From a virus (taxonomy: Duplodnaviria; Caudoviricetes): a stretch of DNA of 64,000 bases. The stretch covers positions 1 to 64,000 of the IMG/VR virus record IMGVR_UViG_3300037313_001869; one strand, 5' to 3'. The notes under the pieces were generated by a model. The model did no database searches and was not told the origin of the DNA. It worked only from the letters and a program-made list of their open reading frames with translations. Within the stretch, counting starts at the first letter, position 1, and the number at the start of each line of letters is the position of its first letter. Below are positions 33,752 to 62,240 of the stretch, one piece after another. A program made the translations under genes and the position numbers.

Positions 33752-34102
33752 ATGGCCTCGCCCATTTTCAACAAGAAGCAGGAGCAACGGGGTCTCGCCA
33801 CCAAGGAGGCGCGGAGGATCAGCCGCACTTCCGACGGGCGGTCGTATGTCCCGGTTTCGGTCGCCACGGCCGAGAACCTGTGGAAGTACGCGACCCTGTG
33901 TGTGGAGAAGAAGGAGCCCTTCTCTCTCCTGAGCAACCTCGGCCCCTGGAACAAGGAAACCGGGACTCCGGCCATCCGGCTCATCCCTCCCGACCAGGTT
34001 CCCGAAGAGGCCGTGCGGCTCGTTCGTGAGGCGTTCGAGGCGATCGGCGCGGAGGTCCTCGAAGGACCTCCGGACCGGTTCGACCGCGAGGACGTGCTCT
34101 AA
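33752..34102 (+). CDS. hypothetical protein, RF tag
   Basis: ends PDRFDREDVL*. Confidence 0.8.
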   Translation: MASPIFNKKQEQRGLATKEARRISRTSDGRSYVPVSVATAENLWKYATLCVEKKEPFSLLSNLGPWNKETGTPAIRLIPPDQVPEEAVRLVREAFEAIGAEVLEGPPDRFDREDVL

Positions 34103-34642
34103 GAGCGCCATCCACTCGATCTTGGCGAACGAGAGGCCGAGCGCGAGGGCCTCGGCCGCCGTGATGACGAGCCCGTCCTTGCCCTCGGCCTTGACCCGGG
34201 AGGGCATGATGGGCTCGCCCGGGTGGAAGGTGAAGACCACCTCCTTGCCGTCGTCCTCGCCGAGGATGGCCACGGTGAAGGGAGCGACCTTGGCTTCGGC
34301 AGGGCGAAGGGCGACGCACGCCTCGACGAAGCCCGTCTTCTTCGGGTCGCGCAGGACCACGGGCGTCTCGGGGGGCAGGTCGGCGAGAGCCGAGAGCCCC
34401 TCGAAGCCCGGAAGCTCGGCCCGGAAAGCCGTGCAACCCTTCATCACGGCCGGGTGCTCGTAGGGGGCCCACGAGGCCGAGAAGAGCGCCGTCTCGATGG
34501 CCGACGGTTCGAGGTCGTAGCCGCTGCCGGCCGCTGCCGGAGAGAGCCGGGAGCGCATGGCAAGGCAGCTCGCGAAGTAGGCCGAGAGGGCCGAGCGGGT
34601 GGTGGAGAAAGCGACGAGAACGCGGGCGGTCGAGTTGGTCAT
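34100..34642 (-). CDS. hypothetical protein (180 aa if TTA is a stop)
   Basis: GC3 bias up to FAKIEWMAL; in-frame TTA is the complement of the convergent gene's TAA. Confidence 0.75.
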
Positions 34643-34686
34643 GCCCCCTCGATGCGCGACCCCTCCGGTATCTGACACGGTGTAGA

Positions 34687-35685
34687 ATGCTTCTCGTGAC
34701 CGACCTCCGAAACAAGATCCTGCTCGGTTCGTGCGAAGACCTCATCTGGCAGGTCCCCGACGGGTTTCTGCCGGCGCTCGTCACGGACCCGCCGTATGGA
34801 CTCGGTAACCGAGAGCCCTCGGCCCGCGAGATCGACGCCTACCTCGAAGGAGGGCGGCTGAACCTCGGCGGCGACTTCATGAACAAGAAGTGGGACATTC
34901 CCTCGGTCGCGTTCTGGAGAGAGTGCTACCGGGCCCTCGAAGACGGCGCCTACCTCGTCTCGTTCGGAGGGACCCGAACCTACGATCTCATCGGCGCCGG
35001 GCTTCTCGCGGCGGGCTTTCGGTGGGTCGCGAAGCGATACTGGGTTCAGTCTCAGGGGATGCCGAAGGGCGGGACCATCGGCAAGAAGATCGACCAGAAG
35101 GCCGGCGCTACGCGAAAGGTCGTCGGCCTGAAGAAGCTGAACGAGCGAGACACGAAGACCTACTACCCGAAGGCCGAGGGCGGCTACGGCGGCATGGACC
35201 CGGCGAACCGTCCGGCAAGCATGTTGATCACCGAGCCGGCCACCGAAGAGGCCGAGCTGTGGGAAGGCTGGGGCTCGACGCTCAAGCCCGCGTGGGAGCC
35301 CATCTACGTCGTCTCGAAGGGCGAGCCTCGCCGGCCCCTCGACCTCGATACGTTCCTCTACTGCGCCAAGGCCACGAAGAGCGAGACCACGCTCCGGGGC
35401 GAGATCGAGAACGATCACCCGACCAAAAAGCCGGTCGAGCTGATGCGCTGGCTTGTGCGTGCTGTCGCTCGACCCGGGGACCTCGTGCTCGACCCCTACG
35501 TGGGCTCAGGGTCAACGGCCGAGGCGCTCGTTCACGAGGGCATGGCCTACCTCGGCTTCGAGCGAGACCCGGCCTTTCACAAGATCGCCGACACCCGCGC
35601 AAGCATCGTGCTCGCAGAGCGCCAGGAGTTCGATGGGCATCGAAATGCTTTCGACCTGGCCATGTCCCTCGGAGACGACGAATGA
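34687..35685 (+). CDS. site-specific DNA methyltransferase (N4-C/N6-A, beta-class order)
   Basis: VTDPPYG, HPTKKP, LDPYVGSGST; start may be GTG 34696 by promoter spacing. Confidence 0.9.
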   Translation: MLLVTDLRNKILLGSCEDLIWQVPDGFLPALVTDPPYGLGNREPSAREIDAYLEGGRLNLGGDFMNKKWDIPSVAFWRECYRALEDGAYLVSFGGTRTYDLIGAGLLAAGFRWVAKRYWVQSQGMPKGGTIGKKIDQKAGATRKVVGLKKLNERDTKTYYPKAEGGYGGMDPANRPASMLITEPATEEAELWEGWGSTLKPAWEPIYVVSKGEPRRPLDLDTFLYCAKATKSETTLRGEIENDHPTKKPVELMRWLVRAVARPGDLVLDPYVGSGSTAEALVHEGMAYLGFERDPAFHKIADTRASIVLAERQEFDGHRNAFDLAMSLGDDE

Positions 35686-36452
35686 ACGCAGCCGCTCTCA
35701 TCCTCTCTGACGCCTTCGAGACCCGAGACGAGTGGGAGGTCCTCCTCTCTTCGGTTCTACCGGGGGCACACGTTGTTCTCGTCGAGGAGGGGCTCTTTCT
35801 CCGCTCCCTTCAGGCGAGGCGAGCGGGCTTTCACCTTCGCGACACGATCGCGTGCCTCTACCCGGGCGACCGGTCGAAGCTAGCCTACCTCTTCCGGGCG
35901 CCGATGAGCGAGAAGTCGCTGACGGACAACATCCTGAGGCACGGTACCGGGGGCCTGCACATCGACGCTTGCCGGGTCCAGACGAGCGACAAGCTCGGCG
36001 GAGGGGCCGAGAAGCGCTGCACCTTCGAGGACTCGGAAGGGTGGTCCCGCCCCTGGATGAAGGACCCCGAAGCCCAGGCGGCCTACGCGGCTCGGGCCCA
36101 GGCGGCCGTAGCACGGGCCGAGCAGCTCGGGAGGTGGCCCGCAAACCTGCTCCTCGTCCACGACCCTTCCTGTGGCCCCTCGTGCGCCCCTCTCTGCCCC
36201 GCGGCCCGTATCGGGGTTCAGAGCGGGCGACGGCCGGCCACCCTTACGGGGAGGGCCGACGGACCCCAGGAGAACCCCGCCACGGCCCGCCCCGACGCCT
36301 TCTTCGGCAACCTGAAGGGCGGTATTGGCGTGGTCTACGCCGACGACGGGGATGCGTCGCGGTACTTCCCCCAGTTCCGCAACGAAGAGGAGCTGTTCTC
36401 CTGGCTCGAACGGCTGGTGACGCCCGAGGGCAAAGCGTGCCTTCGCTTGTAA
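35682..36452 (+). CDS. non-catalytic DNA methyltransferase-related protein
   Basis: GFHLRDTI, HGTGGLHIDACRV, GRWPAN, ASRYF; no DPPY or SAM motif. Confidence 0.7.
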   Translation: MNAAALILSDAFETRDEWEVLLSSVLPGAHVVLVEEGLFLRSLQARRAGFHLRDTIACLYPGDRSKLAYLFRAPMSEKSLTDNILRHGTGGLHIDACRVQTSDKLGGGAEKRCTFEDSEGWSRPWMKDPEAQAAYAARAQAAVARAEQLGRWPANLLLVHDPSCGPSCAPLCPAARIGVQSGRRPATLTGRADGPQENPATARPDAFFGNLKGGIGVVYADDGDASRYFPQFRNEEELFSWLERLVTPEGKACLRL

Positions 36453-36473
36453 AACCTCGGTGTAAAGAGGGGC

Positions 36474-36884
36474 ATGACGCTCCCCATTTTGATACAGGCT
36501 TCGGACGGCCAGGTCGACTACCGCGACCGCGACATCAAGGCCCGCCTTCTGCTTCTCATGAGCGTGCCTGTTGGCCGCTACGACGCGAGCGAGGGCGGGA
36601 AGTACAAGAGCCGTTCCCTGGAGAACTACTGGCTTCAGATCGCGGCCTGGTACGTCTTCGGGCTCGGGGTGCTCGACGTGAGCTTCTCGCTCACAGGTAG
36701 CGACTCCCCGCCCGAGGAGCTGAAAAAGGCGATGCCTCGTGTGCTTTTGCCGATCGCCGACTGCTCGGCGGCGACACAGCAGGCGGTCGAGATCATCCGG
36801 GAGCAGTCGGCCCGGTGGTTCGCGGAGGCCGAACCGGTTCTCTCGAAGCTGTCGTTCTTCACGCTGGCGAGCAAGACGCCATGA
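36474..36884 (+). CDS. hypothetical protein
   Basis: GGTGTA at 36459. Confidence 0.75.
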   Translation: MTLPILIQASDGQVDYRDRDIKARLLLLMSVPVGRYDASEGGKYKSRSLENYWLQIAAWYVFGLGVLDVSFSLTGSDSPPEELKKAMPRVLLPIADCSAATQQAVEIIREQSARWFAEAEPVLSKLSFFTLASKTP

Positions 36885-37570
36885 AGCCGATCATCTTCTG
36901 GCACTCGCCCGAGACCATCCCCGCCGAACTCTACGCGGAGTTCGGCGGCTCGTGCGGCTGTGACGGGGCCCTCGACGACGGCTGCCCGCTCTGCACCAAA
37001 GAGAAGAAGGCCGAGTGGCTCGCCCAGCGGGAGGCAAAGGCCCGGTGGGGGGAGCACGGCCACGCCCGGGACCGGGGAGATCGGGCCTCGCTGCTCAACC
37101 CCCGCTTCATTGTGGGGGAGCTGGACCCGGGCATCAACAACATGCTCGTCCTTGGCGAGTCGAACGTGTCGTGGGAGGGGGCGTTCTTGGATGCAGCCTT
37201 CCGGCAGATGCGTTCGGGAAAGGACGTGCTGCCCCTTCCGATCCGGGCAGGGACCATGAGCCCTGAGGTCGACCTCTGGGTACCCAACGCCTTCACCGAC
37301 GACTGGGAAGAGCTGCGGCCCGCGACACGCATCATCCAGGTCGGTACCCGCGAGGCATTCATAGTCGGTTCGGTCAACGACTACGAAAGCGTCGCCAAGG
37401 TCGCGAGGGTCTCGGCCATCAACCTTTTGCCCCGGCCGGTTCACGCGGACAAGGTGCCCTACGAGCCCTTCCGCTTTCGTGAGCACGCCATGCACGAATG
37501 GCGTTACCTCTGCGCCTACGCCGGGTCCGGGTTTCGGCCGGCCCGCTTCGACAGGGAGCCCCCGCTATGA
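36881..37570 (+). CDS. hypothetical protein, RF tag
   Basis: CGC..CPLC near N-terminus; ends PARFDREPPL*. Confidence 0.8.
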   Translation: MKPIIFWHSPETIPAELYAEFGGSCGCDGALDDGCPLCTKEKKAEWLAQREAKARWGEHGHARDRGDRASLLNPRFIVGELDPGINNMLVLGESNVSWEGAFLDAAFRQMRSGKDVLPLPIRAGTMSPEVDLWVPNAFTDDWEELRPATRIIQVGTREAFIVGSVNDYESVAKVARVSAINLLPRPVHADKVPYEPFRFREHAMHEWRYLCAYAGSGFRPARFDREPPL

Positions 37571-37791
37571 CCTCGTTTCAGGACGCTATCCGCCGGGGCC
37601 ATGTCCGCCCAGGCGACGTGGTCACTGTCTCGCACGCCCTGCCTTACACGGCCCGCCGGGTCGTTCTCTCGGGAGTGCAGTTCAAGGAAGCCAACGACGC
37701 CGGGGCGTGGGTCTCGTCCTCCTGGGGCTCCGAGTGGGTGAGTTTTCGTCTCCGGTGGGAGCTTCACGACGAAGCCGCTGCTCTGATCTGA
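37567..37791 (+). CDS. small hypothetical protein
   Basis: ATGA overlap; precedes terminator. Confidence 0.7.
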   Translation: MTSFQDAIRRGHVRPGDVVTVSHALPYTARRVVLSGVQFKEANDAGAWVSSSWGSEWVSFRLRWELHDEAAALI

Positions 37792-37810
37792 ACTTCCCTT
37801 CCGAAATGCA

Positions 37811-37850
37811 CGAAGGCCCGGGAGAGCGAACTCTCTCGGGCCTTCGTTTT
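37811..37850 (+). terminator. intrinsic terminator
   Basis: CGAAGGCCCGGGAGAG-CGAA-CTCTCTCGGGCCTTCG-TTTT at a convergent junction. Confidence 0.85.
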
Positions 37851-37866
37851 GGGGCTTCCCTCGGGC

Positions 37867-39006
37867 CTAGTTCAGGTGTGAGGTCTCGGCGGGCTTCTCG
37901 GTGGTCGAGGTGGGGACCTGCCAGAGAGCCACCGGGATGTTCTTGCCGTCGTAGAGGCGGGAAGTGGTGCCGACCTTGACGAGCAGGTGCCTCTCCCGGG
38001 CGGCCCGCAGGAGCCCGACGAGGGAGAACGCCGACCGCTGGAGGGTCTCGCCGAGATCCTGGGCCGAGAACGACCGCAGCCCGAAGTGCTGACGCACCGA
38101 ATCCATCATGGTCTCGACCGTGATGGATTTCAGCTCGGGCTTCTCGGGCTTCTGCTTCTTCTTGGCAGCCTTGGTCTCGGGCTTCTTCTTGGCGGTCTTG
38201 GTCTCGGGCTTCTTCGCCGCCGGTTCGGTCTTGCCGGGCTGCTTCAGGTAGAAGTACCCGGTTTTGGTCCCCTCCTTGCGGACGTACTGGACGTTCGGCT
38301 GACGCAAGAGGTAGCGCCGGAGCTGATCCCGCTTGGCCTGCGCCTCGGGCAGGATCTTCCAGCCACGCCGGGCCATCGACTTCTCGATCTCGGTGAGGGT
38401 CACCTCCCGCCCTCCGAAGAGGTGGTGGAGGAACTTCTCCGGGTCGAGCGGCTGACCGACCGGGTTCGCGAGCCAGGTCCGCTCGGCGGCGTGGGGATCT
38501 TCGGCCTTCGGCTCGGCTTTCTTGCCCTTGCCCTTCTTCGGAGCCTCCTCCTCGGGGCTGCTCAGGCTCCCCACGAAGTAGCGCCCTCCGTCCATGGGAT
38601 GGAAGATGCCAGGGTGGTTGCGGAGTGCCCGGCGGAGCGAGCCTTCCGGGTCCCGGAGGCGTGCCGGAAGGAGGCTCTCGGTCACCATGGTGTCGTACAT
38701 GTCCTTGAACGACAGAGAGAGGCCGGCGAAACGGTCGTAGGCGATCTCGTGCAAGAACCGGAACTTGGCCTCGGGCTCTGTGGCCGGTGGGGGCGTAGGG
38801 GCCGGCTTGGCCGCCGGGGGTACCGGGGCTGCCGCCTTTGGCCCGGCCTTCACCTCGGGCTGACCGAGCGAGGCGGCCTGGGTGATGACCTCGGCGAGCG
38901 AGACCAGCTCGGTATCGTCGAGGCTCGGGTAAAAGCCCCGTAGGCGGAAGCGCGCCTTGGTGAAGTCCAGGGCGGCGTCGATCACTTCCTTGTTCGGTCC
39001 GGGCAT
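37867..39006 (-). CDS. multi-domain putative DNA-binding protein
   Basis: N-terminus FRLRGFYPSLDD; several wHTH-like blocks; Lys/Ala/Pro-rich linkers (KKPETK repeats). Confidence 0.8.
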   Translation of the reverse strand: MPGPNKEVIDAALDFTKARFRLRGFYPSLDDTELVSLAEVITQAASLGQPEVKAGPKAAAPVPPAAKPAPTPPPATEPEAKFRFLHEIAYDRFAGLSLSFKDMYDTMVTESLLPARLRDPEGSLRRALRNHPGIFHPMDGGRYFVGSLSSPEEEAPKKGKGKKAEPKAEDPHAAERTWLANPVGQPLDPEKFLHHLFGGREVTLTEIEKSMARRGWKILPEAQAKRDQLRRYLLRQPNVQYVRKEGTKTGYFYLKQPGKTEPAAKKPETKTAKKKPETKAAKKKQKPEKPELKSITVETMMDSVRQHFGLRSFSAQDLGETLQRSAFSLVGLLRAARERHLLVKVGTTSRLYDGKNIPVALWQVPTSTTEKPAETSHLN

Positions 39007-39009
39007 GGG

Positions 39010-39558
39010 TCAGTCTCCGTTCTCGGCGCGGGGAACGCGCCGCAGCGGGGGGATGGCGATCTTGTGCTTGCCCAGCTCCTTCTTGAGCGTGGCAACGTTC
39101 AGGCGAAGAACTTCGACCTCTTCGCGCAGCTCCTTGACGGTTGGGCCCTGCTTCTTTTTCTCGGATTTCGGGATCAGATCGCTGACGTGCTTGGCGATGA
39201 GCTGGTAGGTCGGGGGCATGTTCGAGAGCGCGATCCACGACCTCGTCTGCTTGATGATCTGCTGCCGAAACTGGGCCGGGACGCGGGCGATGAGGGCCGA
39301 GGCGTAGACGCCGAAGCGCTCGATGTCCTGGTCGGAGAGCAGGGTCGTGGCCTTCTCGAACGCCCGGTAGTGCGCCGGTGTGCAGAGGGACTCTTGCCGC
39401 AGCATGTCGTCCCAGTTCTGGTAGGGGCCCTTCTGCCAGACGCGCGTGAGGGGGCGCATCTCGACGAGGAGCTTCATCATCTTCAGGCGGTAGCTCTCGC
39501 CCCGCGTGGCGTAGCTCTTGACGTTGCGGATAAACGACTCGTACTCGTTGTTCGACAT
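39010..39558 (-). CDS. hypothetical protein with C-terminal coiled coil
   Basis: GGTGTA 12 nt before ATG. Confidence 0.8.
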   Translation of the reverse strand: MSNNEYESFIRNVKSYATRGESYRLKMMKLLVEMRPLTRVWQKGPYQNWDDMLRQESLCTPAHYRAFEKATTLLSDQDIERFGVYASALIARVPAQFRQQIIKQTRSWIALSNMPPTYQLIAKHVSDLIPKSEKKKQGPTVKELREEVEVLRLNVATLKKELGKHKIAIPPLRRVPRAENGD

Positions 39559-39625
39559 GGCCCAGCTCTCTACACCAGCCTCGCCGGTTGCCCTGACGAT
39601 TTGCTCGCTCGGTGTAAAGGAAGCC

Positions 39626-40138
39626 ATGGCGACAAGCTACATCAAAGATCCGTACGTCTACCTCGCGGCCCAGCTTTTCGGCGTGAAAGACGAAGAGGTG
39701 ACGTTCGACATGCGCGAGGCCATGAGGCGCGCGGTCAGCTACGCGGCCGAATCCGGCGCCCCTGCCAAGGTCCGGTTCTCGCTGCTTCGGCAGCACCTCA
39801 ACGGCCTGGGAAACCACCTCGACGGCATCAAGCTCCCGTTCACGCTGACCTGTGACCAGGGGAACATCGAGGCGCTTCTCGACTACTTCGCGACGCCGAA
39901 GACCGGTCCGTCCGAAGTCTCGCCGGGCCTCTACGAGCACTTCAAGGGCACGCGCTACCGGGTCCTTCTTGTCTCCCGCGACTCCGAGAGCCGGGAGAAG
40001 CGCGCCATCTACACCCCCCTGACGCCCGAGGAAGGGTGGGACGGGGTGCCGTGGGACCGTCCGGTCGGCATGTGGGGCGACCTTGTGAGGTGGCCCGACG
40101 GCAAGTACCGTACGCGCTTCGCCCGCGTGAGCGACTAA
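39626..40138 (+). CDS. DUF1653-like domain protein with PolA-like N-terminal fragment
   Basis: PGLYEHFKG.RY.V..DSES..W.RP..MW..RF; N-terminal DPY..AAQLFGVK.EEVT..R. Confidence 0.75.
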   Translation: MATSYIKDPYVYLAAQLFGVKDEEVTFDMREAMRRAVSYAAESGAPAKVRFSLLRQHLNGLGNHLDGIKLPFTLTCDQGNIEALLDYFATPKTGPSEVSPGLYEHFKGTRYRVLLVSRDSESREKRAIYTPLTPEEGWDGVPWDRPVGMWGDLVRWPDGKYRTRFARVSD

Positions 40139-40585
40139 GGCATCGACCAAGAGGTACCGCAGATTCATGCGCGTATCCTGATCGCGGATCTTCCGGAACC
40201 CCGGGCCCAGCTCGTCGGCGAGCGGCTCGGGGAACTGGATCACGGTCGAGAGCTGATCCTGCTGCCGGCAGTAGCAGACGAGGCCAAGCAAGCTCGTCGT
40301 CGGGTCGTCGCAGCGGTAGAGGCGGTGGGCCAGGTGCTCGCAGAAGAGCGAGAAGAACACTTCGGCGTTCGCCGCTTGGTAGTAGACCGGTTCGAGCCTC
40401 CGGCCCCAGGGGTACCAGAGCAGCCGCCGCATTCTCTCCCGGCCCCGCAGCGATTTGCTGGCCAGGAAAGCGAACTCGGCGTGAGCCGGATCGTCGTGGT
40501 GGGTGACATGCCAGCCGCAGGCGGCCAGCTCGCCGGCCTCGTCGATGGCCGCTTGCAGGGTGGGGTAAGGGCCGTACGTCTTCAC
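40136..40585 (-). CDS. family B-related protein (149 aa if TTA is a stop)
   Basis: EHLAH..DDP..LGLVCYC; in-frame TTA is the complement of the convergent TAA; otherwise runs into a 990-aa antisense ORF. Confidence 0.65.
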
Positions 40586-40634
40586 CTCTTCTGTCAGACC
40601 ACAAGTGCTTTTTCGTCCGGTGTACCTGAAACCC

Positions 40635-41045
40635 ATGGACTTCGACTCACTCATTGGACGGGAAGTGGACTTTTACGGGGTCGACAACAATCGCTTTCGG
40701 TTGGGTGTGACCGCCAGTGAGAGCGTGACGTTCGAGGCCATCGAAGACCCGAACGACGGCTACCGATCCATGATGGAAGAGATCCGCGTCGTGACCGACG
40801 GCTCCGGCATCTTCTTTCGCTACCCCATCGCTCGCGTCCGGATCGAGCGAGTCCAGGATTCGTTCGCGGGCTACCTCTTGCGGGACGTGGCGCGTGACCA
40901 TGTTTGGCTCAAGGTCGGGACCAGCAACACGGGCGACTACTATCCCTACTTCACGTTCGATTACACGGTCTGTGAGAACTTCGTCCATGACGACAACCCC
41001 GAGCCGACGGGCTCGCCGCGGTACGATCGCGAGGACGTGCTGTGA
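40635..41045 (+). CDS. conserved phage protein, RF tag
   Basis: GGTGTA at 40619; FYGVDNNRF..EDPNDGYRS..GT.N..DYYP.F; PRYDREDVL*. Confidence 0.85.
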   Translation: MDFDSLIGREVDFYGVDNNRFRLGVTASESVTFEAIEDPNDGYRSMMEEIRVVTDGSGIFFRYPIARVRIERVQDSFAGYLLRDVARDHVWLKVGTSNTGDYYPYFTFDYTVCENFVHDDNPEPTGSPRYDREDVL

Positions 41046-41314
41046 GCTACTGCCGCATGAACGGCCGCGACTCGGACGTGTACGCCTACCACGATGCACG
41101 GGGAAAGCTCGTGTGCTGTGGCTGCTCGATCAGCCCCCACGATCCCGACACGGTAGGGTACGAAGAAACCTCGTACGCCGCGTTCGTAGCGCACCTCCGG
41201 GCGCACCAAGAACGCGGCGACAGGGTTCCTGAACGAGCCTTCCAGCGCCTCGAAGCCGAAGCGCTGGAAGAGGGCGATCTCGTTCAGCCGTTCAGTACAT
41301 CGACGGATCGATGA
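41042..41314 (+). CDS. small Cys/His protein
   Basis: MSYCR..SDVY..CCGC..HL.AH..GD.VP. Confidence 0.75.
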   Translation: MSYCRMNGRDSDVYAYHDARGKLVCCGCSISPHDPDTVGYEETSYAAFVAHLRAHQERGDRVPERAFQRLEAEALEEGDLVQPFSTSTDR

Positions 41315-49524: not shown

Positions 49525-49809
49525 TAACTTCGGGTCGTCCTGGTCGATCAGGTCTTCGAGGATCGCGATGACCATGCGTTCGTATCGGCCGACCTCCTCC
49601 CGATGCAGCAGCTCGATCACCGGGAGCTTGCGCTTGCGCTCCTCGATCGTGTCGCGGGCCGTGAACGAGAGGAGGGGGTTTGGGCTGTAGTCGGCCGTCG
49701 GGGTCGTGACGGCCAGGATCTCAGCCTCGCCCGACTCGACGAACATGCCGAGGGAAGAGCAGGCGTCCTTCAGGTGCCAGAACAGCTCGGATGCCTCGGC
49801 CTTGGTCAC
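49525..49809 (-). CDS. hypothetical protein (94 aa if TTA is a stop)
   Basis: GTGA overlap; in-frame TTA after DQDDPK. Confidence 0.7.
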
Positions 49810-52775: not shown

Positions 52776-52780
52776 GGGCG

Positions 52781-53063: not shown

Positions 53064-53065
53064 CG

Positions 53066-53867: not shown

Positions 53868-53920
53868 GGCCTTGGAGTACACCTCTCGTGAAGAGCTTGC
53901 AGAAAGGTTCGTGAGTAGGT

Positions 53921-54890: not shown

Positions 54891-54897
54891 GCCGATC

Positions 54898-55362
54898 TAA
54901 GACACCGCCTTCGTCGTCGTCCTCTTCACCCTCGGCGCTGGCTTCGCCCTCTTCGCCCTCACTTCCGCTGTTCTCGCCGGCCATGTTGAGATCGTCGAGG
55001 TCTTGCAGAAGTTCGAGAACGTGTCCGACGCCCTGCTCGTCTCGCCACATGCCCACCCACCCGACGAGGGGCACGTCGCCGCAGTCGCACTCACACATGA
55101 CGTTCTCGTCGAGGGCGAACTCGGTCTCGGCCCGGACGAAGAGAAAGGTACGGACGAGGTTGCCGTGCTTGCCGTCCTGGCAAGGCAGCATGGCCCAGAG
55201 AACGATTTTGCCCGGCTTCGACTTGTCGTCGATGTTGAAGATTTGAGCCCCGAAGGGCAGCTCCATGATCACGCGCTGGGTATCGAGGCCGACTTCGATC
55301 CCCTTGATGATGTAGCGGGGAGGGGCGAACGGGAGGTGCTCGATCGAGTGGTTGTCGCTCAC
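54898..55362 (-). CDS. hypothetical protein with acidic tail (154 aa if TTA is a stop)
   Basis: LPFGAQI..LWA..R.F; acidic tail followed by in-frame TTA; next gene starts 7 nt later. Confidence 0.75.
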
Positions 55363-55476
55363 GGATGGGCGCTCCTTGGTCTACCGAGAGCCCGGGCAAA
55401 GGAGCATTCTCGATGGGCGAGGGTCGGGCTTGCTGGCAGGCGGACCCGCGAAGATCCGGTGTAGTACGCGATCACC

Positions 55477-56415
55477 ATGCCCCGTCCGACCAACATGCCC
55501 TGCTGGGCTGTCGAAGGCGCTACCATCGAGCCGGCCTCGAACCAGGCTCAACTTCGGAACGACCACGGCCGGATCGTCTCGGCCAAACTCTATGCCGCCG
55601 AGCATCCTGGGATGGCCCTCGTGATCGACGCGGTTACCGACGAAAACCTCATCGTCCGCGTGGGCTCAAAGACCTTCACGGTGGCTTACGACACCGCCTT
55701 CTCGACGAGCTGGCGGCTCGTGGGGACCGTGCCCGAGCGGGTCCAGCCCCCGAGCTGGCTTCGCACCGGGATGGCCATTCGCTACCAGGGGGCGGCCGAG
55801 GGGCCCGCTGTCTTGCACAACGTGGGCGAGATTCGCTTGCGGGGCACGTTCCGTAACCGCTTCGGGGTCGAGCGGATCACCCGGCAGTACGTCGAGGTGA
55901 TCAACGCCGACATCGCTGGCAGTCTGCGGGCCCCTCTGACGGCCGATTTCGCGGTCAACTGGGGCCCCTGCGTCGGAGACGGTACCGCCCCGGCCCCTGC
56001 CTGGCTCCAGGAGGGCTCGTACGTGCGGCCGAAGGACAACGACGGCCAGCCGCTCAACACCTACTCGTTCCTGGTCACCGAGGTGGCGACCACGTTCTTC
56101 CGGGCGCAGCCGGTCTACAACCACGGCGTACTCGGTCCGGCCATTCAGTTCCCCATGGGGACGGCCGAGGATGCTTGGGTGCTCGCTCCCGACGACCCGA
56201 AGACGCGCCGCGACTACAAGCCTGGCATGGTCCTGCGTAGCCGGCGGACCGGGGAACTCGTCGAGATCAAGACCATCGACCCCGGCACGGGCGCCTTTAC
56301 CGTGGGCAGTCTCCGCCAGCAAATCCGTACACTTACTCCTGGGGAAGGGGAGTTCGTCCTTCAGGAGGACCAACCGGTGGAGAACGTGCCCGACCGCTTC
56401 GGGAGGATCGAGTAG
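55477..56415 (+). CDS. family E multi-repeat protein, RF tag
   Basis: PCWAVEG, PSWLRTG, PAWLQEG repeats; PDRFGRIE*. Confidence 0.85.
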   Translation: MPRPTNMPCWAVEGATIEPASNQAQLRNDHGRIVSAKLYAAEHPGMALVIDAVTDENLIVRVGSKTFTVAYDTAFSTSWRLVGTVPERVQPPSWLRTGMAIRYQGAAEGPAVLHNVGEIRLRGTFRNRFGVERITRQYVEVINADIAGSLRAPLTADFAVNWGPCVGDGTAPAPAWLQEGSYVRPKDNDGQPLNTYSFLVTEVATTFFRAQPVYNHGVLGPAIQFPMGTAEDAWVLAPDDPKTRRDYKPGMVLRSRRTGELVEIKTIDPGTGAFTVGSLRQQIRTLTPGEGEFVLQEDQPVENVPDRFGRIE

Positions 56416-57572
56416 TGCCCCCGCTTGGGTCCTGGGTTTATGAAGGGGTGTATGCCATCTCCCCCGAGGGCGCCGTTCGGTGCATCGTCAACGTCCGAGA
56501 CGACCGGTTCACCTCGGCGCCTCCGCTGACGTTCAGCTACGACCGTCGAACGCACCCGATGCTGGAGGCGGCCCGCTGGACGCCGCTCACCGCTTTCGAG
56601 GCCGAGGTCATTCGGGGCCTGTCATTTGGGCGGCATGTTCACTACAGCAACATGCCCCAAGGGGTGGGAGCCACCTTCGATCCGGTCGCTCGGATCGAGG
56701 GGGAGCTTCCGCCCTGGTACGTCGTCGGTGGCCGGTGCAGGGTGCGCGGCGACAGCCTGATGACCTACACCCTCTTCGATGCCGGTCGATCCCAGATGGC
56801 CTTTCGAGAGAACGCTGGGCCCGGGCGACTCTTTCAGTGCTCGGCGCCGGGGGCCATCCGGCTGTTCGAGGCGGTACCTGGCCCCTGGGAACGTCCCGCT
56901 ACCGAGCCCCTCTACGCGATCTCTTGGCAGAGGACTCCGCCCCCGCCCGACCCTCCGCCTGCAAACGAGCTTCTCCGGGTTGCCGACGAGGTCACCCATG
57001 TGACGAGGAAGATCCGCGTGGCGTTTGGGGTCGGGGACGACGAGAAAGAGGGGGTCACGTTGGAAGCCGAAACCGTAGCCCCGCATCCGAACTCGCCCTT
57101 TTTCAAGGGGGCGATTGTGCTAAACGACAAGGGCTACGCCTACAAGGTCGAAAACGTCGAGGTCGAGAATGGCACGCCTTCGGCCATTCTCATGTGGGAC
57201 CTCGACCGGTCTTCACTGCCCCATGCCCGGCCCTACTCGCGTCGCTACCCAATCCCTGTCCCGCTCACCTGGGCTGCGGACATGCCCGTTCCCGCGGGGC
57301 TGACCGAGGAAGACTGCTCGCTCTTCGACGAGTTGAAGACGGGGCAGGTTCTCGTGGACCTCGACTCGCGGCGTATTCTCGTGGTCGTCGGATTCCTGGT
57401 GACGGGTGACGAGAACCGGAAGACGCATTTTCTGATCGAGGAGGCAACGAAGGGCCCCGGAGAATCCAATCCCTTTCAGGTGGCCTCTGAGCCGGTTCGT
57501 TCCCGGTGGGTCGCACTTGGGCCCCATCGCAAGCCCCCGTCTCGGTTCGACCGCCTTGGGGAAGACCTCTGA
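56415..57572 (+). CDS. family E multi-domain protein, RF tag
   Basis: LPPWYVVG; ends PSRFDRLGEDL*. Confidence 0.8.
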   Translation: MPPLGSWVYEGVYAISPEGAVRCIVNVRDDRFTSAPPLTFSYDRRTHPMLEAARWTPLTAFEAEVIRGLSFGRHVHYSNMPQGVGATFDPVARIEGELPPWYVVGGRCRVRGDSLMTYTLFDAGRSQMAFRENAGPGRLFQCSAPGAIRLFEAVPGPWERPATEPLYAISWQRTPPPPDPPPANELLRVADEVTHVTRKIRVAFGVGDDEKEGVTLEAETVAPHPNSPFFKGAIVLNDKGYAYKVENVEVENGTPSAILMWDLDRSSLPHARPYSRRYPIPVPLTWAADMPVPAGLTEEDCSLFDELKTGQVLVDLDSRRILVVVGFLVTGDENRKTHFLIEEATKGPGESNPFQVASEPVRSRWVALGPHRKPPSRFDRLGEDL

Positions 57573-57955
57573 TGGAGACCCCGCTCCGTATCGGTTCGCT
57601 TCTCAAGCACAAGCAGTCCGGCGATGCCTACCTTGTGAAGGCCATCTCTGGCGTGGGTAGCTACCAGGTCGAGCGGCAAGACCCGATGCGGACGCGCTAC
57701 TGGTACCAAGTATCCCAGATCCCCGAATACTTCGAGATCATCCCCGACCCGCCTCCGTGGCTCAAGACCGGGGCGAAGATCATCGACCAGAGCAACAACC
57801 TCTTCGTGGTGAACGCGGTTCTCGGGCGACGGGTCGTTCTGCGAAGGTCTGCCGGGCGAGACGGACTTGGGGAGCTTGTCGAGACTACGCTCGACGATGT
57901 GGTGAAGGACTGCCGGCCCGTCGACTTCCGCCCTACCCGTTTCGATCGCATCTAG
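57572..57955 (+). CDS. family E protein, RF tag
   Basis: PPPWLKTG; ends PTRFDRI*. Confidence 0.85.
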   Translation: METPLRIGSLLKHKQSGDAYLVKAISGVGSYQVERQDPMRTRYWYQVSQIPEYFEIIPDPPPWLKTGAKIIDQSNNLFVVNAVLGRRVVLRRSAGRDGLGELVETTLDDVVKDCRPVDFRPTRFDRI

Positions 57956-57981
57956 CCGCTTTTGGTGTAGAGAGCTGGGCT

Positions 57982-59166
57982 ATGACACAACCGGCTACCA
58001 AGCAAAAAGCTCTCACCCCTGCTCCTCCCTGGTGGAATCACTCGCTTCTGCCGAGGCAGAACGTGATGAAGACCGGTCCCCTCGCCATGCTCCTTGGCTT
58101 CGCCGTCGCCCGCGGCGAGACGGTCTACACGGGCTCGTGCCGCGGGGTGCTCGAAGACAGTGATGAGGAGGGGCAGAAGGCGTTTCAGGACGACCTCTGC
58201 AAGATCGCAAAGGACTCCTCGGTCGTGCTCGTGGGCGGCCCGCTCTTCGGCCGTGGGGCCTACGAGACGTGGATCACCTGGGAGCGGGGCGCCATCACCC
58301 TCGAACTCGGGATGGACGGCAAGGTCAACCTGAACCTCGCGACGCTCGACGAGGACATCTACATGAAGCTCGCCGAGACCATCGGAGAGCACATGCTCCC
58401 CGAGGCGACGCGGCAGCCGGTCTACACGCTCGCGCAGGTCAACGGCGAGATGACCGTGGCCGAGCTGGGGCTCGCGGGGGCTCCGCTCGAAGCGGGTAAC
58501 TACGCCCCCGAAATCGTCGAAGACTTCAATTTCATCGTGCAGGACCTCGGCGAGAGCGTGCCGACCGGGCGCCTCGTGATCCTCGACGGCCCGCCGGGGA
58601 CGGGCAAGACCTACCTCATCCGGGGCCTCATCAACGAGGTGCTCGACGCGGTCTTCGTCGTCGTCCCGCCGCACTTCCTCCACCAGCTCACCGACCCCTC
58701 GTTCGTGCCGATGCTCCTCAAAGCCCGGGCGAACGCCGGCTCGGACAAGCCCATCGTGCTCATCCTCGAAGACGCCGATGACGCCATCCGGCTTCGCAAG
58801 GACCGCGGCAAGAACAACCAGATCGCGGCGCTCCTGAACCTCTCCGACGGCCTCATCGGCCAGGCGCTCGATCTCCGCATCGTGGCCTCGACCAACCGCA
58901 GCGTCGCCGAGATCGACCCTGCCCTTCGCCGCCCGGGGCGGCTTCTGCGGCACATGATCGTGGGCCCTCTCTCGCCCGAGCAGGCGAGCGAGGTCTACGA
59001 GCGGATCTCCGAGGGCGAAGAGGTCGAGTTCGAGGGCCCGACCACCCTCGCTCAGGTCTACGCCCACTTCAAGGGCCTCCAGCTTCTCGACGACCAGGAG
59101 GACGAAGACGAGGAGGACCTCGACGAAGATGAGGACGACGAAGATGAGGACGACGAGGACGACTTA
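57982..59166 (+). CDS. AAA+ ATPase with acidic tail (ends at TTA)
   Basis: GPPGTGKT, ILEDAD, STN, RPGR; poly-D/E tail then TTA GCC ATG. Confidence 0.85.
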
Positions 59167-59169
59167 GCC

Positions 59170-59562
59170 ATGGCGTCGTACACGGTCGCGCAGGTCTACA
59201 CGCACGAGGTAGCCGCCTGGGTCACCCTCCTTACGGCCCAGGCCGTCCCGGGGCTGCTCGAAGGGCTTCTCAAGAAGGACTACGAAGTTGCCTCCCTCTC
59301 CGAGACCCTGACCCTTCGGAGTGAGGTGAGCGCGGTCGTGGGCTTGTGGATCAAGCGTAAGGAGTCGACTGCCACGCTCGACCCCTACAAGGTCCGGGAC
59401 GATATCCAGCAAGTCTTGAATGAGGCCCGCTCGACCTTCTTCTCGATCGTCGTGGCGCACATTGGAGGGGCCGGCTGGACCGGGTCGAACCTCATCCTGC
59501 TCAAAGAGGCCCCACCCCCTCCTCCGGACGAAGACGAAGAGCCCCCGCCCCAGCTTCACTGA
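59170..59562 (+). CDS. hypothetical protein
   Basis: ATG 3 nt after TTA, GAGGA upstream; fused to the ATPase only under the standard code. Confidence 0.7.
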   Translation: MASYTVAQVYTHEVAAWVTLLTAQAVPGLLEGLLKKDYEVASLSETLTLRSEVSAVVGLWIKRKESTATLDPYKVRDDIQQVLNEARSTFFSIVVAHIGGAGWTGSNLILLKEAPPPPPDEDEEPPPQLH

Positions 59563-59840
59563 TGCGCCCCCTTAGTCCCTTTGCGATCGGACGGCGCTGG
59601 TACTCCGAACGGCCGCCCGAGGAGCGGAAACCCAACTTCGAGTTTGTGATCGTCGGTCCGGGATCGAAGCTTTACACGAAGCTCTGCCGGATCGAGATCA
59701 GCGACGAGGAGATGGCCCGCTTCCCCGAGTATTACACAGGGCAAAACGGCAACGGCACGGTCCAGGAGTATTCCCACAAGCACCTGCGGAAGTACGCAAG
59801 GCTCGTCCGGGACCGGTTCGAGAGGGTCGACGACGAATAG
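59562..59840 (+). CDS. hypothetical protein, RF tag
   Basis: TGATG coupling; DRFERVDDE*. Confidence 0.8.
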   Translation: MRPLSPFAIGRRWYSERPPEERKPNFEFVIVGPGSKLYTKLCRIEISDEEMARFPEYYTGQNGNGTVQEYSHKHLRKYARLVRDRFERVDDE

Positions 59841-59877
59841 AAAAGGCCCCGAGCGTTCTAGCGCCCGGGGCCTTTTC
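59840..59877. terminator. bidirectional intrinsic terminator
   Basis: GAAAAGGCCCCG..CGGGGCCTTTTC between convergent genes. Confidence 0.8.
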
Positions 59878-59896
59878 GCGTCTCTCGGAGAGAGGC

Positions 59897-60970
59897 TCAG
59901 TCGTTGACCAGGAAGGTCACCTTCTTGACGGCCATCCACTTGGTGCCCGGCCGGCCCGTCTCGGGGTTGCCCTTGCACACGAGCGAGGTCATGTCCCCCT
60001 CGACTTCCCGGCCCATGTTCTGATCGAGCTGCCGGCGCATGTTGAAGTCGTTCTTCACGGCGAAGGTGAGCTGCACCACGGTACCCGCCTTGGTGCGGAC
60101 CGGCAGGTCCATCTCCCCGGCCACGGTCTTGCCCATGCCGCCCCGCGCACGTTCGACGGCCGCCTTGATCTTGCCCACGATCTGGGTCATCGACAGGTCC
60201 ACGCCCTTGTCCATCGACGACTCGAACGAGACGAGCGCGTTGAGGATCTCCTTCGGCCCCACCTTCTTGGCCGGGGCGCCGCTCTTCACCGTGGCCGACC
60301 GGATCGCGTCCTGGAGGCTGATGCAGCCGTTCATCAGGTTGGTCACGAACGGGCGCAGGGGCCAGGAGTCGGGGTGCTTGCCCATGATGAGCTTGTGCGT
60401 CTTCACCGCCACGGCGAGCGCGTCCCTGTCATCCGACGACTGGGCGAGCTGCCTCAGGGTGATGAGGGTCTGGTCGAGACCGCGCTGCATCGACTTCACG
60501 AGGTCCGCCGGGAAGTCCTTGCGGAACTCTTCGAGGTCGTCGATGGCTTCGTCGAGGTCGCTGCTGTCGACGAGGAAGATCCGGCCCGGGGTCGTCCGGG
60601 TCTCCTGGAACACCTTGTCTCGCAGACCCATGAGGTACTGAAGCTCGACCGAGACCGTCTCGATGTCGTCGAACGTGAACATCTCCGACGACTCGATCCG
60701 AGACCCCAGCTCCGCCGCTTGCGATTGCAGAAGAAGAGCCTTCGGAGGCACTTCGTTGCCCCTGTCCTGGTGGTCTTCGACCTCGTCGGTGAGGGTGCTC
60801 AGGAAGCGCTTGTAGCTCTTTTCGAGGTTGTCCAGATGGGTGAAGAGCTTCGCGACGCTCTCGCACTGCTTCTGGATGTTCATGAGCGAGAGCATCACCT
60901 GTCGGGCTTCGCCCCCTTCTTGGAAGGACCGAACCGAGCGAGAAGACGTGCGATCGTAGCTGTAGGCCAT
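59897..60970 (-). CDS. hypothetical helical protein, possible virion protein
   Basis: 357 aa; begins MAYSYDRT. Confidence 0.85.
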   Translation of the reverse strand: MAYSYDRTSSRSVRSFQEGGEARQVMLSLMNIQKQCESVAKLFTHLDNLEKSYKRFLSTLTDEVEDHQDRGNEVPPKALLLQSQAAELGSRIESSEMFTFDDIETVSVELQYLMGLRDKVFQETRTTPGRIFLVDSSDLDEAIDDLEEFRKDFPADLVKSMQRGLDQTLITLRQLAQSSDDRDALAVAVKTHKLIMGKHPDSWPLRPFVTNLMNGCISLQDAIRSATVKSGAPAKKVGPKEILNALVSFESSMDKGVDLSMTQIVGKIKAAVERARGGMGKTVAGEMDLPVRTKAGTVVQLTFAVKNDFNMRRQLDQNMGREVEGDMTSLVCKGNPETGRPGTKWMAVKKVTFLVND

Positions 60971-61029
60971 CGGGTTCCTGAGCGCAGGGGGGAAGGTCTA
61001 GGTACCCAGGCCCGGTGTATAAGAAGCCT

Positions 61030-61413
61030 ATGGCAAACGCCCAAACCTCCCATCAAGAGTGCATCGCCCTCCTCAACCTTCTTCGGGACGCAATCCACGA
61101 CAACGCCCGAGCCAAGGGCTTTCAGGACCCGCCCCAGGACCTTCAGACGATGGGCATGAACACCATCGGCGAGATCCTGGAGCAGTGGGAGTCGTACCGG
61201 GCCGGCACGCTCGACCAACCGTGCGACAAGACCGAGAAGATGATGGCCCTCTTCGGCGAGACCCTGACCAACCAGGAAGAAGAGGCGGCCGATCAGCTCA
61301 TCCGAGTGCTCGACATGTGCGGCCGGTTCGGCATCGACATCAGCCGAGCCGTTCGGGTGAAGATGGCCTACAACAGCACCCGACCTCAGCGCCACGGGGG
61401 CAAGCGAGCCTGA
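61030..61413 (+). CDS. MazG-like nucleotide pyrophosphohydrolase
   Basis: GEILE..E, EEEAAD..IRVLD, KMAYN..RP..HGGK. Confidence 0.8.
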   Translation: MANAQTSHQECIALLNLLRDAIHDNARAKGFQDPPQDLQTMGMNTIGEILEQWESYRAGTLDQPCDKTEKMMALFGETLTNQEEEAADQLIRVLDMCGRFGIDISRAVRVKMAYNSTRPQRHGGKRA

Positions 61414-61432
61414 CTCCGGTGTAGAAGAGCGG

Positions 61433-61545
61433 GACGGCCCGCGAGTAAGCCCTCCGGGTTAGGGACCACTGTGCTCACCTCTGTGGATGGTCCCCTGGGG
61501 GTCGGCCGGCTGGCCCGGAGGGCTTTTTCGCGGGCCGTCTTGTTT
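61433..61545 (+). ncRNA. candidate structured small RNA (~110 nt)
   Basis: GGTGTA at 61418 with no ORF; nested perfect stems 61433-44/61528-39, 61447-58/61514-25, 61462-68/61488-94. Confidence 0.6.
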
Positions 61546-61852
61546 AGAACGGCACGTCGGCAAGATCGTAGGAACCGTCGGACCGAGCCTCCGCGGGGCC
61601 CTCGTTCATGATGGCCTCGCGCTCGTCCCGGTCCACCCGCCAGTCGGGACCGTACATGTAATCCCAGAACTTCTCGATGCTCCCACACCGTCCCGATCCG
61701 CGACGGTGTGGGAAGTGGTACCGGGAGCAGAAGCACGGTTTGCGGTCTTCCCGGACTTTCCGCATCCACCGGCAGAGAGGCCGCGCCGGCCGGCAGCCTG
61801 AGACGTGCTTCGTGGGTCGGCAGAGTATCCGGGAGATCGGGCGGCGAGCCAT
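61544..61852 (-). CDS. Cys/His-rich phage protein
   Basis: CFC..YHFPHR.GSG.C. Confidence 0.7.
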   Translation of the reverse strand: MARRPISRILCRPTKHVSGCRPARPLCRWMRKVREDRKPCFCSRYHFPHRRGSGRCGSIEKFWDYMYGPDWRVDRDEREAIMNEGPAEARSDGSYDLADVPF

Positions 61853-61892
61853 GCTTACTAGACCCCGAAAAGAACTCTCGCGAGGAGAAAAC

Positions 61893-62240
61893 ATGTTCGA
61901 CGAAGAACCCGAAGTGCGGACGTTCCTTCCGAGCGCCGAGGTCAAGGCCGAGGTCCTGCGCCAGCTCGCCGAGTTCGAGGCGCTCTACCGGACCCCGAAT
62001 CCTTGGATGAAAGAGGGCCAGCCGGTCCGGCACAAGCTCTATGAGCGTTACGGCGTCATCGCGGCCGTGGGCAACCTCGGATGCCGGATCGACAAGCTCG
62101 TCTACCGGGGAGAGAGGGGGCTTTTCGATCCGCCCTTTGCTCTCTCCGTCTCGCTCGCCGAGGTAGCTATCTGCTGGGAGCCCTACGACCCTTCGGAGCT
62201 GGGCTCGCGGTTCGACAAAGCCTGCCGCGACGGCCTCTTA
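61893..62240 (+). CDS. family E protein, RF tag (ends at TTA)
   Basis: GAGGAG SD; NPWMKEG; SRFDKACRDGL then TTA, complement of the convergent TAA. Confidence 0.75.

Follow-up and report, generated by a model that had tools for sequence, protein, structure and literature searches.

Reassignment of a sense codon to termination is, to our knowledge, documented only in a few mitochondria. In the mitochondrial code of Thraustochytrium (NCBI table 23), TTA is a stop codon; we know of no description of shared TAA/TTA stops in that mitochondrion or in that of Pycnococcus provasolii, where UUR has become a stop. For AGA/AGG in human mitochondria, a +1 frameshift was once proposed. The Pycnococcus change is accompanied by unusual residues in mtRF1a, and both the UCA-to-stop change of Scenedesminia (table 22) and that of AGA/AGG are explained by the disappearance of a rare codon and its later capture by an altered release factor (PMC6821328). 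In phages, recoding of stops (TAG to Gln, TGA to Trp, and suppressor tRNAs) is well documented (PMC11210395, PMC10879173). Surveys of the code of bacteria and phages rely on tools blind to changes from sense to stop, since predictors of the Codetta type cannot detect them (PMC9825746).

Here we examine a complete phage genome of 435 kb with 65% G+C and a set of 559 genes, together with a window of it, which is the whole stretch of 64,000 nucleotides that was analyzed. About 65 of the 559 genes terminate at TTA, and not one internal TTA was found across ~124,000 codons of coding regions. From sequence evidence, it is very likely that TTA, a leucine codon, acts in this phage as a fourth stop besides UAA, UAG, and UGA. 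No two stops of the standard code are reverse complements of each other, and a common stop triplet in register is therefore impossible for two genes. TTA, by contrast, is the reverse complement of TAA, so that a single triplet can end both of two converging genes. Thraustochytrium and Pycnococcus share with the phage both the codon and the direction of the change, from leucine to termination, but theirs are organelle genomes served by a dedicated nuclear-encoded release factor, whereas the phage genome is 435 kb, has a bacterial host, and carries no such factor of its own. In table 22 of Scenedesminia, TCA and TGA are likewise reverse complements, although the codon is different and the genome is that of an organelle. 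The recoded phages resemble the present one in having a nonstandard code and many tRNAs, which here include one with a CUA anticodon; however, they turn a stop into sense, and the present phage does the opposite. Ordinary convergent overlaps (CTAA/TTAG or longer tail-to-tail overlaps) also have 3' bases in common but never one stop triplet in register, as the phage has, for which the only neutral change is a swap of the central A and T.

Table 1. Gene ends in the window at which TTA is read as a putative stop, and the genes that meet at shared triplets
Feature	Positions	Strand	Remarks
TTA gene end, nonconvergent	10201..10203	+	next standard stop 1272 codons away
TTA gene end	30091..30093	-	end of a - gene
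116-aa gene	33752..34102	+	end ...PDRFDREDVL-TAA, recurrent C-terminal tag; coding score 42, tail 0
Shared stop triplet	34100..34102	both	TAA stops + gene, TTA stops - gene, one register
181-aa gene, widespread unnamed family	34100..34645	-	end ...AKIEWMAL-TTA; coding score 75
Gene with C-terminal DUF1653 domain	39518..40138	+	TAA end; start codon uncertain, coding signal from 39533
Shared stop triplet	40136..40138	both	TAA for + gene, TTA for - gene
172-aa orphan gene	40136..40654	-	end ...RYLLVDA-TTA
TTA gene end	49525..49527	-	next standard stop 734 codons off; following gene soon starts in same frame
TTA gene end, acidic protein tail	54898..54900	-	end of a - gene
TTA end of AAA ATPase gene (57757-59166)	59164..59166	+	followed by gcc ATG of next + gene
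115-aa gene, C-terminally tagged set	61893..62240	+	end ...GSRFDKACRDGL-TTA; score 42, tail 0
Shared stop triplet, mirror orientation	62238..62240	both	TTA for + gene, TAA for - ORF
Short gene (probable), start undefined, support weak	62238..62500	-	end ...EYLAGRKD-TAA
TTA end overlapping next start codon (TTATG)	63540..63542	+	end of a + gene

The sequence-only reading had proposed that three convergent gene pairs in the window have a TAA/TTA triplet in common, and the sequence at all three is as it described (Table 1), with weak support for the minus-strand gene at 62238. It had further held that such junctions function only if TTA terminates, and this core inference is supported by those of that reading's own checks that were run, such as homolog lengths. 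Most of the junction genes in the window received no Pfam or PHROG family assignment. At 34100, the context is ctc TAA gag on the plus strand and ctc TTA gag on the minus strand, and both genes keep their coding signal as far as the triplet. The next standard stop in the minus frame lies 201 antisense codons past TTA, which would give a product of 381 aa. A Pfam search with the minus-strand gene gave no match; its 492 homologs are typically 170 to 185 aa long, lack the antisense extension, and stop 2 to 5 residues past a conserved AK[VI] motif, exactly at the position of TTA. At 40136, the DUF1653 Pfam profile (positions 1 to 61 of 62) finishes 4 aa ahead of the TAA of the plus-strand gene. 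The minus frame runs on past TTA for 818 further open codons of R/P/G-rich antisense junk; a homolog search with the minus-strand gene found none, and its translation under NCBI table 23 terminates at its TTA. At 62238, the plus-strand gene terminates in ...SRFDKACRDGL-TTA, with the next standard stop 54 codons farther. The opposite frame has a coding score of just +16 over 62241 to 62400, which makes it the weakest partner among the three sites, yet it is the sole positive frame there. The claim that a TTA stop gives this gene a C-terminal SRFDK like that of other tagged proteins also held: xR[FY][DE]R occurs within 15 residues of the end in 76 proteins, and TTA defines five of these ends, one of them RFDREGPL-TTA at 402930. 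A further TAA/TTA coincidence, at 59164, was rejected as a convergent shared stop, as the minus-strand ORF is antisense junk and the next plus-strand gene follows.

Across the genome, exact sharing far exceeds chance, as a count of the kind suggested by the earlier reading bears out. A stop-to-stop gap of -3, that is, the same triplet, occurs at 11 of the 44 convergent junctions in the automated gene set (12 including 62238), against an expectation of ~0.24 junctions per single gap value (Poisson P of ~3e-15 for the spike), and every other gap value was seen at most twice. The stop is shared at 12 of the 15 convergent junctions with a TTA-ended gene (62238 counted), where register alone predicts at most one-third (P = 3e-4). 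Orientation is symmetric, with TAA on the plus strand at 5 shared sites and TTA at 7. At the 11 automated junctions, tails are 0 to 4 codons on both sides, except for a single partner each at 64307 (15) and 402930 (10); an independent two-sided scan recovered 10 of the 11 and added 3 candidates. Ordinary convergent overlaps of 4 to 107 nt are also present in the genome. No conserved sequence or hairpin was found around the shared triplets, and a CTNAG motif was rejected as the cause of their C-TAA-G context, the number of CTAAG plus CTTAG (66 sites) not being unusual. The TTA-ended partner is an aspartate carbamoyltransferase gene at the 82362 junction and an RNase HII gene at the 101218 junction. 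At the latter, the related phage contig L100 has a 143-nt spacer with the RNase HII end unchanged, and the partner gene seems ~44 aa longer here than in L100 in a pairwise alignment that is weak. The sequence-only reading had called these overlaps selected: selection is only partly shown. The excess is real, but purifying selection acting on a triplet in double use, together with a neutral ratchet, accounts for it no less well than compaction favored by positive selection.

Coding statistics agree with termination at TTA. Among 55 in-frame TTAs with an upstream coding signal, 41 (75%) lose that signal downstream, compared with 8 to 28% for most control codons, and what lies downstream of each TTA is junk, the start of the next gene, or a converging gene. 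When TTA was added to the stop set, genes with a tail of at most 5 codons rose from 260 to 303 and long tails fell from 67 to 31; the cost was 44 of 45,911 score units, compared with 1,539 for a CTA control. The coding signal also stops at each of TAG, TGA, and TAA, and in the few cases of continuation the next gene starts in the same frame; in-frame TAG or TGA, as expected of stop-to-sense recoding, was not found inside conserved genes, and removing TAG from the stop set made gene ends worse. The base after TTA at gene ends is G in 28 cases, C in 22, T in 13, and A in 2.

Homologs place the ends of these proteins at the same positions. Alignment of the 1284-aa structural protein (L001) reaches the last residue of four homologs and is followed by TTA, and homologs of ClpX also stop exactly at TTA. 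Aligned with solved chains, aspartate carbamoyltransferase comes within 3 aa of their C termini before it meets TTA, and full-length Pfam profiles of DUF4419, volactin, and OTCace finish 3 to 6 aa ahead of it. RNase HII, which ends like its solved homologs, terminates in ...VERD-TTA here versus ...VERD-TAA in a relative. In the standard-code relatives L024 and L026, TAA is the counterpart of the phage TTA within an equivalent TAATG/TTATG overlap. Two homologous stops are TAA in standard-code relatives, with the register preserved (e.g., ACG TAA TGC versus CAG TTA TGC), and indels are therefore not needed. TTA is used in standard-code relatives as a leucine codon aligned to Leu, at 5 of 7,323 codons in L024, 35 of 6,051 in L026, and 8 of 6,235 in L096.

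TTA is confined to gene ends in two phage contigs from other samples, L095 (458 kb) and L100 (454 kb; within a MAG), and these ends match those of homologs for ClpX, CxxCxxCC, CN_hydrolase, and a methyltransferase. A shared triplet is also present in L095, at 11790 to 11792. It seems likely that there is a lineage of ~450-kb jumbo phages in which UUA was captured as a stop, and their bacterial hosts may have the same code. In a ClpX tree, the standard-code L096 is the sister of our phage within the group containing L095 and L100, so a single origin of the TTA stop is not evident. Close relatives were found neither by tblastn of L001 against deposited phages nor by an exact-peptide scan of IMG/VR, and the 51 loci found by a profile scan were distant and lacked the TTA-stop signal.

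The phage encodes a bacterial-type tmRNA, RecA, and ClpX. The tmRNA scores 78.8 bits with Rfam, and its tag reads ANDNFAASPALAA-TTA, that is, ...ALAA-TTA. A single scan of genome contigs for a tmRNA tag of the form NDNFA...AA-TTA gave eight matches, none of them a tmRNA and four of them an acidobacterial repeat. The 44 phage tRNAs include Leu anticodons CAA, GAG, and CAG; a phage tRNA with anticodon UAA was absent even at permissive ARAGORN settings. A 93-nt tRNA at genome positions 331929 to 332021 carries a CUA anticodon of the suppressor type, and alignment with the class II tRNAs of the phage gave it no clear identity. Genes for RF-1, PCRF, Pth, and SmpB were not found in the phage.

The lack of a tRNA-Leu(UAA) and of a release factor gene in the phage, along with its tmRNA and ClpX, could also fit stalling of ribosomes at UUA for want of a tRNA, followed by codon-independent release through tmRNA, that of the phage included, through ArfB-like hydrolysis, or through peptidyl-tRNA drop-off. 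We consider this unlikely. Rescue by tmRNA would have no end point, because the tag frame is itself closed by TTA, and tagging would degrade 12% of the proteome, large structural proteins included; moreover, tmRNA is inefficient on ribosomes that have a long stretch of mRNA ahead of them. Neither Pth nor SmpB nor an RF-1-domain (ArfB-type) gene is encoded by the phage, and the TTATG stop-start overlaps suggest normal termination with reinitiation. Another account of an unassigned UUA is that the ribosome stalls at this hungry codon and slips +1 to the UAG of TTAG, in which case the shared junctions would be ordinary CTAA/TTAG two-base stop overlaps. Homolog lengths cannot separate this account from termination at TTA, since the frameshift product has the same C terminus. 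That all three window sites read TTAG on their TTA strand, as the sequence-only reading had pointed out, is confirmed; 11 of the 12 shared sites do so and leave room for a +1 shift, and the ends of the tmRNA tag, ClpX, aspartate carbamoyltransferase, and RNase HII are also TTAG. However, about 35 of the 65 TTA ends are TTAC (22) or TTAT (13), and none of these has a stop in the +1 frame. The shift would thus not lead to a standard stop at every site, which excludes slippage onto TAG as a general mechanism; for the same sites, the frameshift account of AGA/AGG, also a change from sense to stop in vertebrate mitochondria, fails here. The best-supported ends, those of L001 and L002 (TTATG) and of DUF4419 and volactin (TTACCC), lack TTAG. 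At shared sites, the G after TTA corresponds to the C-ending last codon of the partner (C is the final base in 21 of 24 such codons), and the P-site codons CTC, GAC, and GCC would be unable to re-pair after a +1 slip. Frameshifting is accordingly quite improbable as an explanation.

The record comes from one metagenomic assembly, and miscalling of TAA as TTA, or 1-nt indels beside TAG, might be suspected. Such an artifact is very improbable: the pattern recurs at ~65 sites with zero internal TTA, it is found again in L095 and L100 from different samples and assemblers, and alignment with relatives requires no indel. The argument of the sequence-only reading that a single error cannot produce a shared stop also stands, as mending the stop of one strand destroys that of the other. 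A reading in which TTA is simply leucine and the proteins truly carry long C-terminal extensions has nothing in its favor beyond the standard code and is scarcely credible, given that the extensions are neighboring genes read antisense or out of frame, with junk composition, that homologs lack them, and that the ...LAA degron of the tmRNA tag would no longer be exposed at the end but buried.

If UUA terminates translation, as we prefer to read the data, plus- and minus-strand genes meeting in register would end at one triplet, with neither a spacer nor an overlap of sense codons between them. We propose a model in which this shared state is an evolutionary trap. At 65% G+C, the antisense frame in register with a gene would be almost free of stops, and a converging gene that lost its own stop would survive only by reaching the TAA or TTA of its partner. 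Thereafter only the central A-to-T or T-to-A transversion would be tolerated; because any other change would let one of the genes run on over hundreds of codons, shared triplets would be frozen, whereas unshared TAA and TTA stops might drift to TGA under G+C pressure. This ratchet could account for the excess of shared junctions. The infected cell would have no tRNA decoding UUA, and the codon would be read by a host release factor of widened specificity or by an unrecognized phage factor. Such recognition, which we purely infer, would be the kind of release-factor change seen in Pycnococcus mtRF1a.

If this reading is true, the phage would represent the first sense-to-stop reassignment outside organelles; it would imply a release activity, of bacterial or phage origin, that tolerates U as the second base of the codon, and would point to a novel mode of UUA recognition for peptide release. 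About 12% of its genes would be misannotated in public databases, fused to antisense junk (e.g., 1431 aa for 1284, 381 for 181, and 484 for 446). The shared triplets would be the most compact internal proof of the change, as no sequencing error or standard-code reading satisfies both strands, and in them a single codon would be under a dual constraint that is new in kind. The reassignment would have made the bidirectional TAA/TTA stop possible as a matter of structure, and selection would then have locked this stop in at convergent junctions; the phage would offer a natural test of codon-capture theory in a high-G+C system.

The window covers the first 64 kb of a jumbo bacteriophage genome, represented in IMG/VR by a single contig of 435,218 bp (64.8% G+C; direct terminal repeats; completeness, 100%). 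Its 44 tRNA genes form one block, and the contig also has a tmRNA and genes for RecA, ClpX, aspartate carbamoyltransferase, and RNase HII along with many orphan genes. Because the high G+C content makes raw ORF lists useless, coding potential was assessed in all six frames with a codon log-odds model, for which 139 long, high-GC3 ORFs served as the training set. A home-made, greedy caller returned 559 genes, with TGA (361), TAG (78), TTA (65), and TAA (54) as stops. Stop usage also varies regionally (Fisher P = 1.4e-4): in the structural-gene region, genome positions 140000 to 260000, stops are nearly all TGA (62) and TTA (20), with four each of TAA and TAG, versus 299 TGA, 74 TAG, 50 TAA, and 45 TTA elsewhere, and from about 199 to 250 kb TTA occupies all 16 consecutive TAA-or-TTA stops. 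This pattern suggests that stop choice is linked to gene class or expression phase.

Codon composition supports TTA as a stop. Of the 55 in-frame TTAs that have 40 coding codons upstream, 41 have noncoding sequence downstream, and such a drop in coding signal is far rarer after control codons; wherever a TTA has any positive downstream score, either the next gene starts in that frame or a converging gene accounts for it. In the downstream coding-score test, TTA was indistinguishable from the three standard stops, and TAG and TGA still act as stops in this phage. When TTA was added to the set of stops, 43 genes went from having no stop near the end of their coding signal to having one at most 5 codons away, and long tails were halved with almost no loss of coding score, versus a 35-fold-higher loss with the control codon CTA. 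At five gene ends, TTA overlaps the start codon of the following gene as TTATG.

Homology places protein ends at the same codon. Pfam profiles reach their last position 3 to 6 residues ahead of TTA for DUF4419 (303/303), volactin (321/321), and OTCace (156/157), and the next standard stop in the DUF4419 gene lies 396 codons past its TTA. The carbamoyltransferase aligns to within 3 residues of the C termini of solved aspartate carbamoyltransferases, and the end of RNase HII falls within the normal range. A structural protein of 1,284 aa (1,431 aa in its standard-code database version) aligns with four metagenomic homologs of 1,165 to 1,235 aa through to their final residue, where TTA follows. 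The tmRNA, which adjoins tRNA-Leu(CAA), has a canonical tag, ANDNFAASPALAA, that ends in ALAA and then TTA; the next standard stop is six codons further on and would bury the LAA degron. ARAGORN did not call this tmRNA, presumably because its tag ends in TTA instead of a standard stop. A pattern scan for tmRNA tags gave a chance match to a conserved element in four acidobacterial genomes (MAG contigs L087, L088, L091, and L092), in which TTAGCGCG repeats come after an inverted repeat, GTTGTCGT...ACGACAAC; Rfam rejected it as a tmRNA.

The sequence-only reading had described three convergent gene pairs in the window as ending on one shared TAA/TTA triplet, and the bases at all three sites are as it described. 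At 34100 and 40136, the coding score stays positive up to the triplet in both genes, and the minus frames beyond TTA run for 201 and 818 codons, respectively, without a standard stop, as antisense junk. At 62238, where the roles are reversed, the minus-strand partner is short and weakly scoring, and yet it is the sole positive frame there. The comparison of homolog lengths that had been proposed favors termination at TTA: for the minus-strand gene at 34100, 492 homologs were found in a library of 1.8 billion proteins, and most are 170 to 185 aa long and stop 2 to 5 residues past a conserved AK[VI] motif, which is the position of TTA, versus 381 aa under the standard code. A further TAA/TTA coincidence at 59164 was rejected as convergent, as the gcc ATG of the next plus-strand gene comes after the TTA. 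Separately, 76 proteins, mostly of 75 to 250 aa and mostly plus-strand encoded, carry a C-terminal motif, approximately P-x-R-[FY]-[DE]-R-[DEG]-x-[VP]-[LIV]-stop, that usually ends exactly 4 residues before the C terminus; the proteome holds only 27 other matches, and the motif might serve as a tag for targeting or recognition.

Features discussed in the text, in genome coordinates unless marked otherwise (L021 and L023 are stretches of the phage genome)
Feature	Position	Strand	Description
Shared triplet	34100-34102 (window)		TAA on +, TTA on -
Shared triplet	40136-40138 (window)		TAA on +, TTA on -
Shared triplet	62238-62240 (window)		TTA on +, TAA on -
Shared triplet	64307		LigT-like phosphoesterase, partner ending in TAA
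Shared triplet	82362		Aspartate carbamoyltransferase, partner ending in TTA
Shared triplet	86521		Transglycosylase, partner ending in TAA
Shared triplet	101218		RNase HII, partner ending in TTA
"Pre-shared" junction	66590-66601 (just past window end)		TGA of + gene, six bases, then in-frame TAA complementary to the TTA stop of the - gene
tmRNA	269912-270439 (L021:5912-6439)	-	528 nt; Rfam 78.8 bits, full length
Class II tRNA	331929-332021 (L023:6929-7021)	-	93 nt; anticodon CUA; discriminator A; CCA encoded
C-terminal motif loci	868-62240 (window), e.g., 14470, 28325, 34100, 41043; 386074-402930; 432258-434974		

Shared triplets exceed chance expectation genome-wide. Both stops fall on one triplet at 11 of 44 convergent junctions (Poisson P of about 3e-15), and any other spacing occurs at most twice. 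Among the 15 convergent junctions with a TTA-ended gene, 12 are shared (62238 included), where register alone allows at most one-third (P = 3e-4). An independent two-sided scan gave 13 shared sites, comprising 10 of the automated set and 3 further candidates. The plus strand reads TAA at five shared sites and TTA at seven, a split as expected if the central A/T swap is neutral in either direction. At 101218, the RNase HII C terminus is kept, with VERD followed by TTA in this phage and by TAA in the TTA-stop phage contig L100, where the counterpart junction includes a spacer of 143 nt and the partner gene is shorter; on the basis of a weak partner alignment, the partner in our phage appears to have been extended as far as the RNase HII stop. 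A shared triplet also occurs in a second TTA-stop phage contig, L095, at a nonhomologous junction. Of the 24 sense codons directly before the stops at shared sites, 21 have C as their third base, versus a 49% background (P = 9e-5). This bias creates a C-TAA-G context with G after both stops; a strong termination context may have been selected at these sites, where read-through costs the most.

Why shared triplets are so frequent may be explained by a ratchet. In-register antisense stops need the sense codons TTA, CTA, or TCA, and these are absent or rare here, so that the in-register antisense frame can run on for hundreds of codons uninterrupted. Loss of its stop would then be tolerable for a converging gene only if its partner lay in register and had TAA or TTA as its stop, and a shared triplet, once formed, would be unable to follow G+C drift to TGA. 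As the relatives are TAA rich, an ancestor would have offered many such partners. This model fits the 21 of 44 convergent junctions that are in register, the 12 of these that are shared, and the "pre-shared" junction at 66590/66599, where one mutation would make another shared triplet. Alternatively, positive selection for compactness may lie behind the excess. To our knowledge, the in-register shared stop is an undescribed consequence of TTA acting as a stop.

In two syntenic contigs (60% and 52% G+C), TTA is an ordinary sense codon. These relatives have TAA at two stops homologous to TTA stops of the phage, with the same stop-start overlap (TAATG/TTATG), and the correspondence involves no indel. 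Nine TAA stops in a relative's syntenic module correspond in the phage to four TGA, two TAG, two TTA, and one TAA. A ClpX search led to two closer jumbo-phage contigs from other samples, L095 (JGI 3300081839 Ga0672874_0000004; 458 kb; 62.5% G+C) and L100 (GCA_040384025.1 JAWVHG010000027.1, an NCBI MAG contig; 454 kb; 57% G+C). In both, genes called under the standard code contain TTA only close to the 3' end, at positions where homologs stop, and junk follows it. TTA-ended genes encode ClpX (437 aa; homolog, 428) and a CxxCxxCC protein (215 aa; homolog, 216) in L095 and a CxxCxxCC protein (213 aa; homolog, 216), a CN_hydrolase (263 aa; homolog, 261), and a methyltransferase (278 aa; homolog, 273) in L100. 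In public annotation, the gene calls of all three TTA-stop phages run on into junk tails, and the recurrence of the pattern in three independent assemblies rules out an assembly artifact. The history of the trait is not simple, since phage L096 (56% G+C), in which TTA encodes conserved leucines, uses the standard code and yet groups as the sister of our phage in a tree built from ClpX. The trait is accordingly patchy, whether by reversion, by more than one gain, by dependence on the host, or by transfer of ClpX.

As to how translation ends at UUA, a +1 slip could reach a stop only at the 28 TTAG sites (TAG) and the 2 TTAA sites (TAA), and it is excluded as a general rule by 35 TTAC/TTAT sites, among them the ends of the best-supported genes. 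Nor is tmRNA rescue a likely route, given that the tmRNA frame itself terminates in TTA. Genes for RF-1 or PCRF, Pth, and SmpB are absent from the phage, and its tRNAs include no tRNA-Leu(UAA). The most economical reading, by analogy with mitochondrial sense-to-stop changes, for which a release factor of widened specificity has been proposed (PMC6821328), is that UUA would be unassigned in the infected cell and read by such a factor, which would be host encoded or an unrecognized phage protein. Separately, the class II tRNA with anticodon CUA is of the amber suppressor type, and yet TAG is the stop of about 78 genes and in-frame TAG was seen in none.

TTA is likewise a stop in the Thraustochytrium mitochondrial code (NCBI table 23), and UUR-to-stop and UCA-to-stop changes are known from the mitochondria of Pycnococcus and Scenedesminia, respectively (PMC6821328), whereas known phage recoding runs in the opposite direction, from stop to sense (PMC11210395, PMC10879173). 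In full-text literature searches, no report turned up of bacteria or phages that use UUA/TTA as a stop; Codetta, used in a large prokaryotic survey, is blind to sense-to-stop changes (PMC9825746). With precedents that are mitochondrial, phage recoding of the opposite kind, and no bacterial or phage report found, we therefore class TTA termination in this phage as a variant of the genetic code in a biological context that is new.
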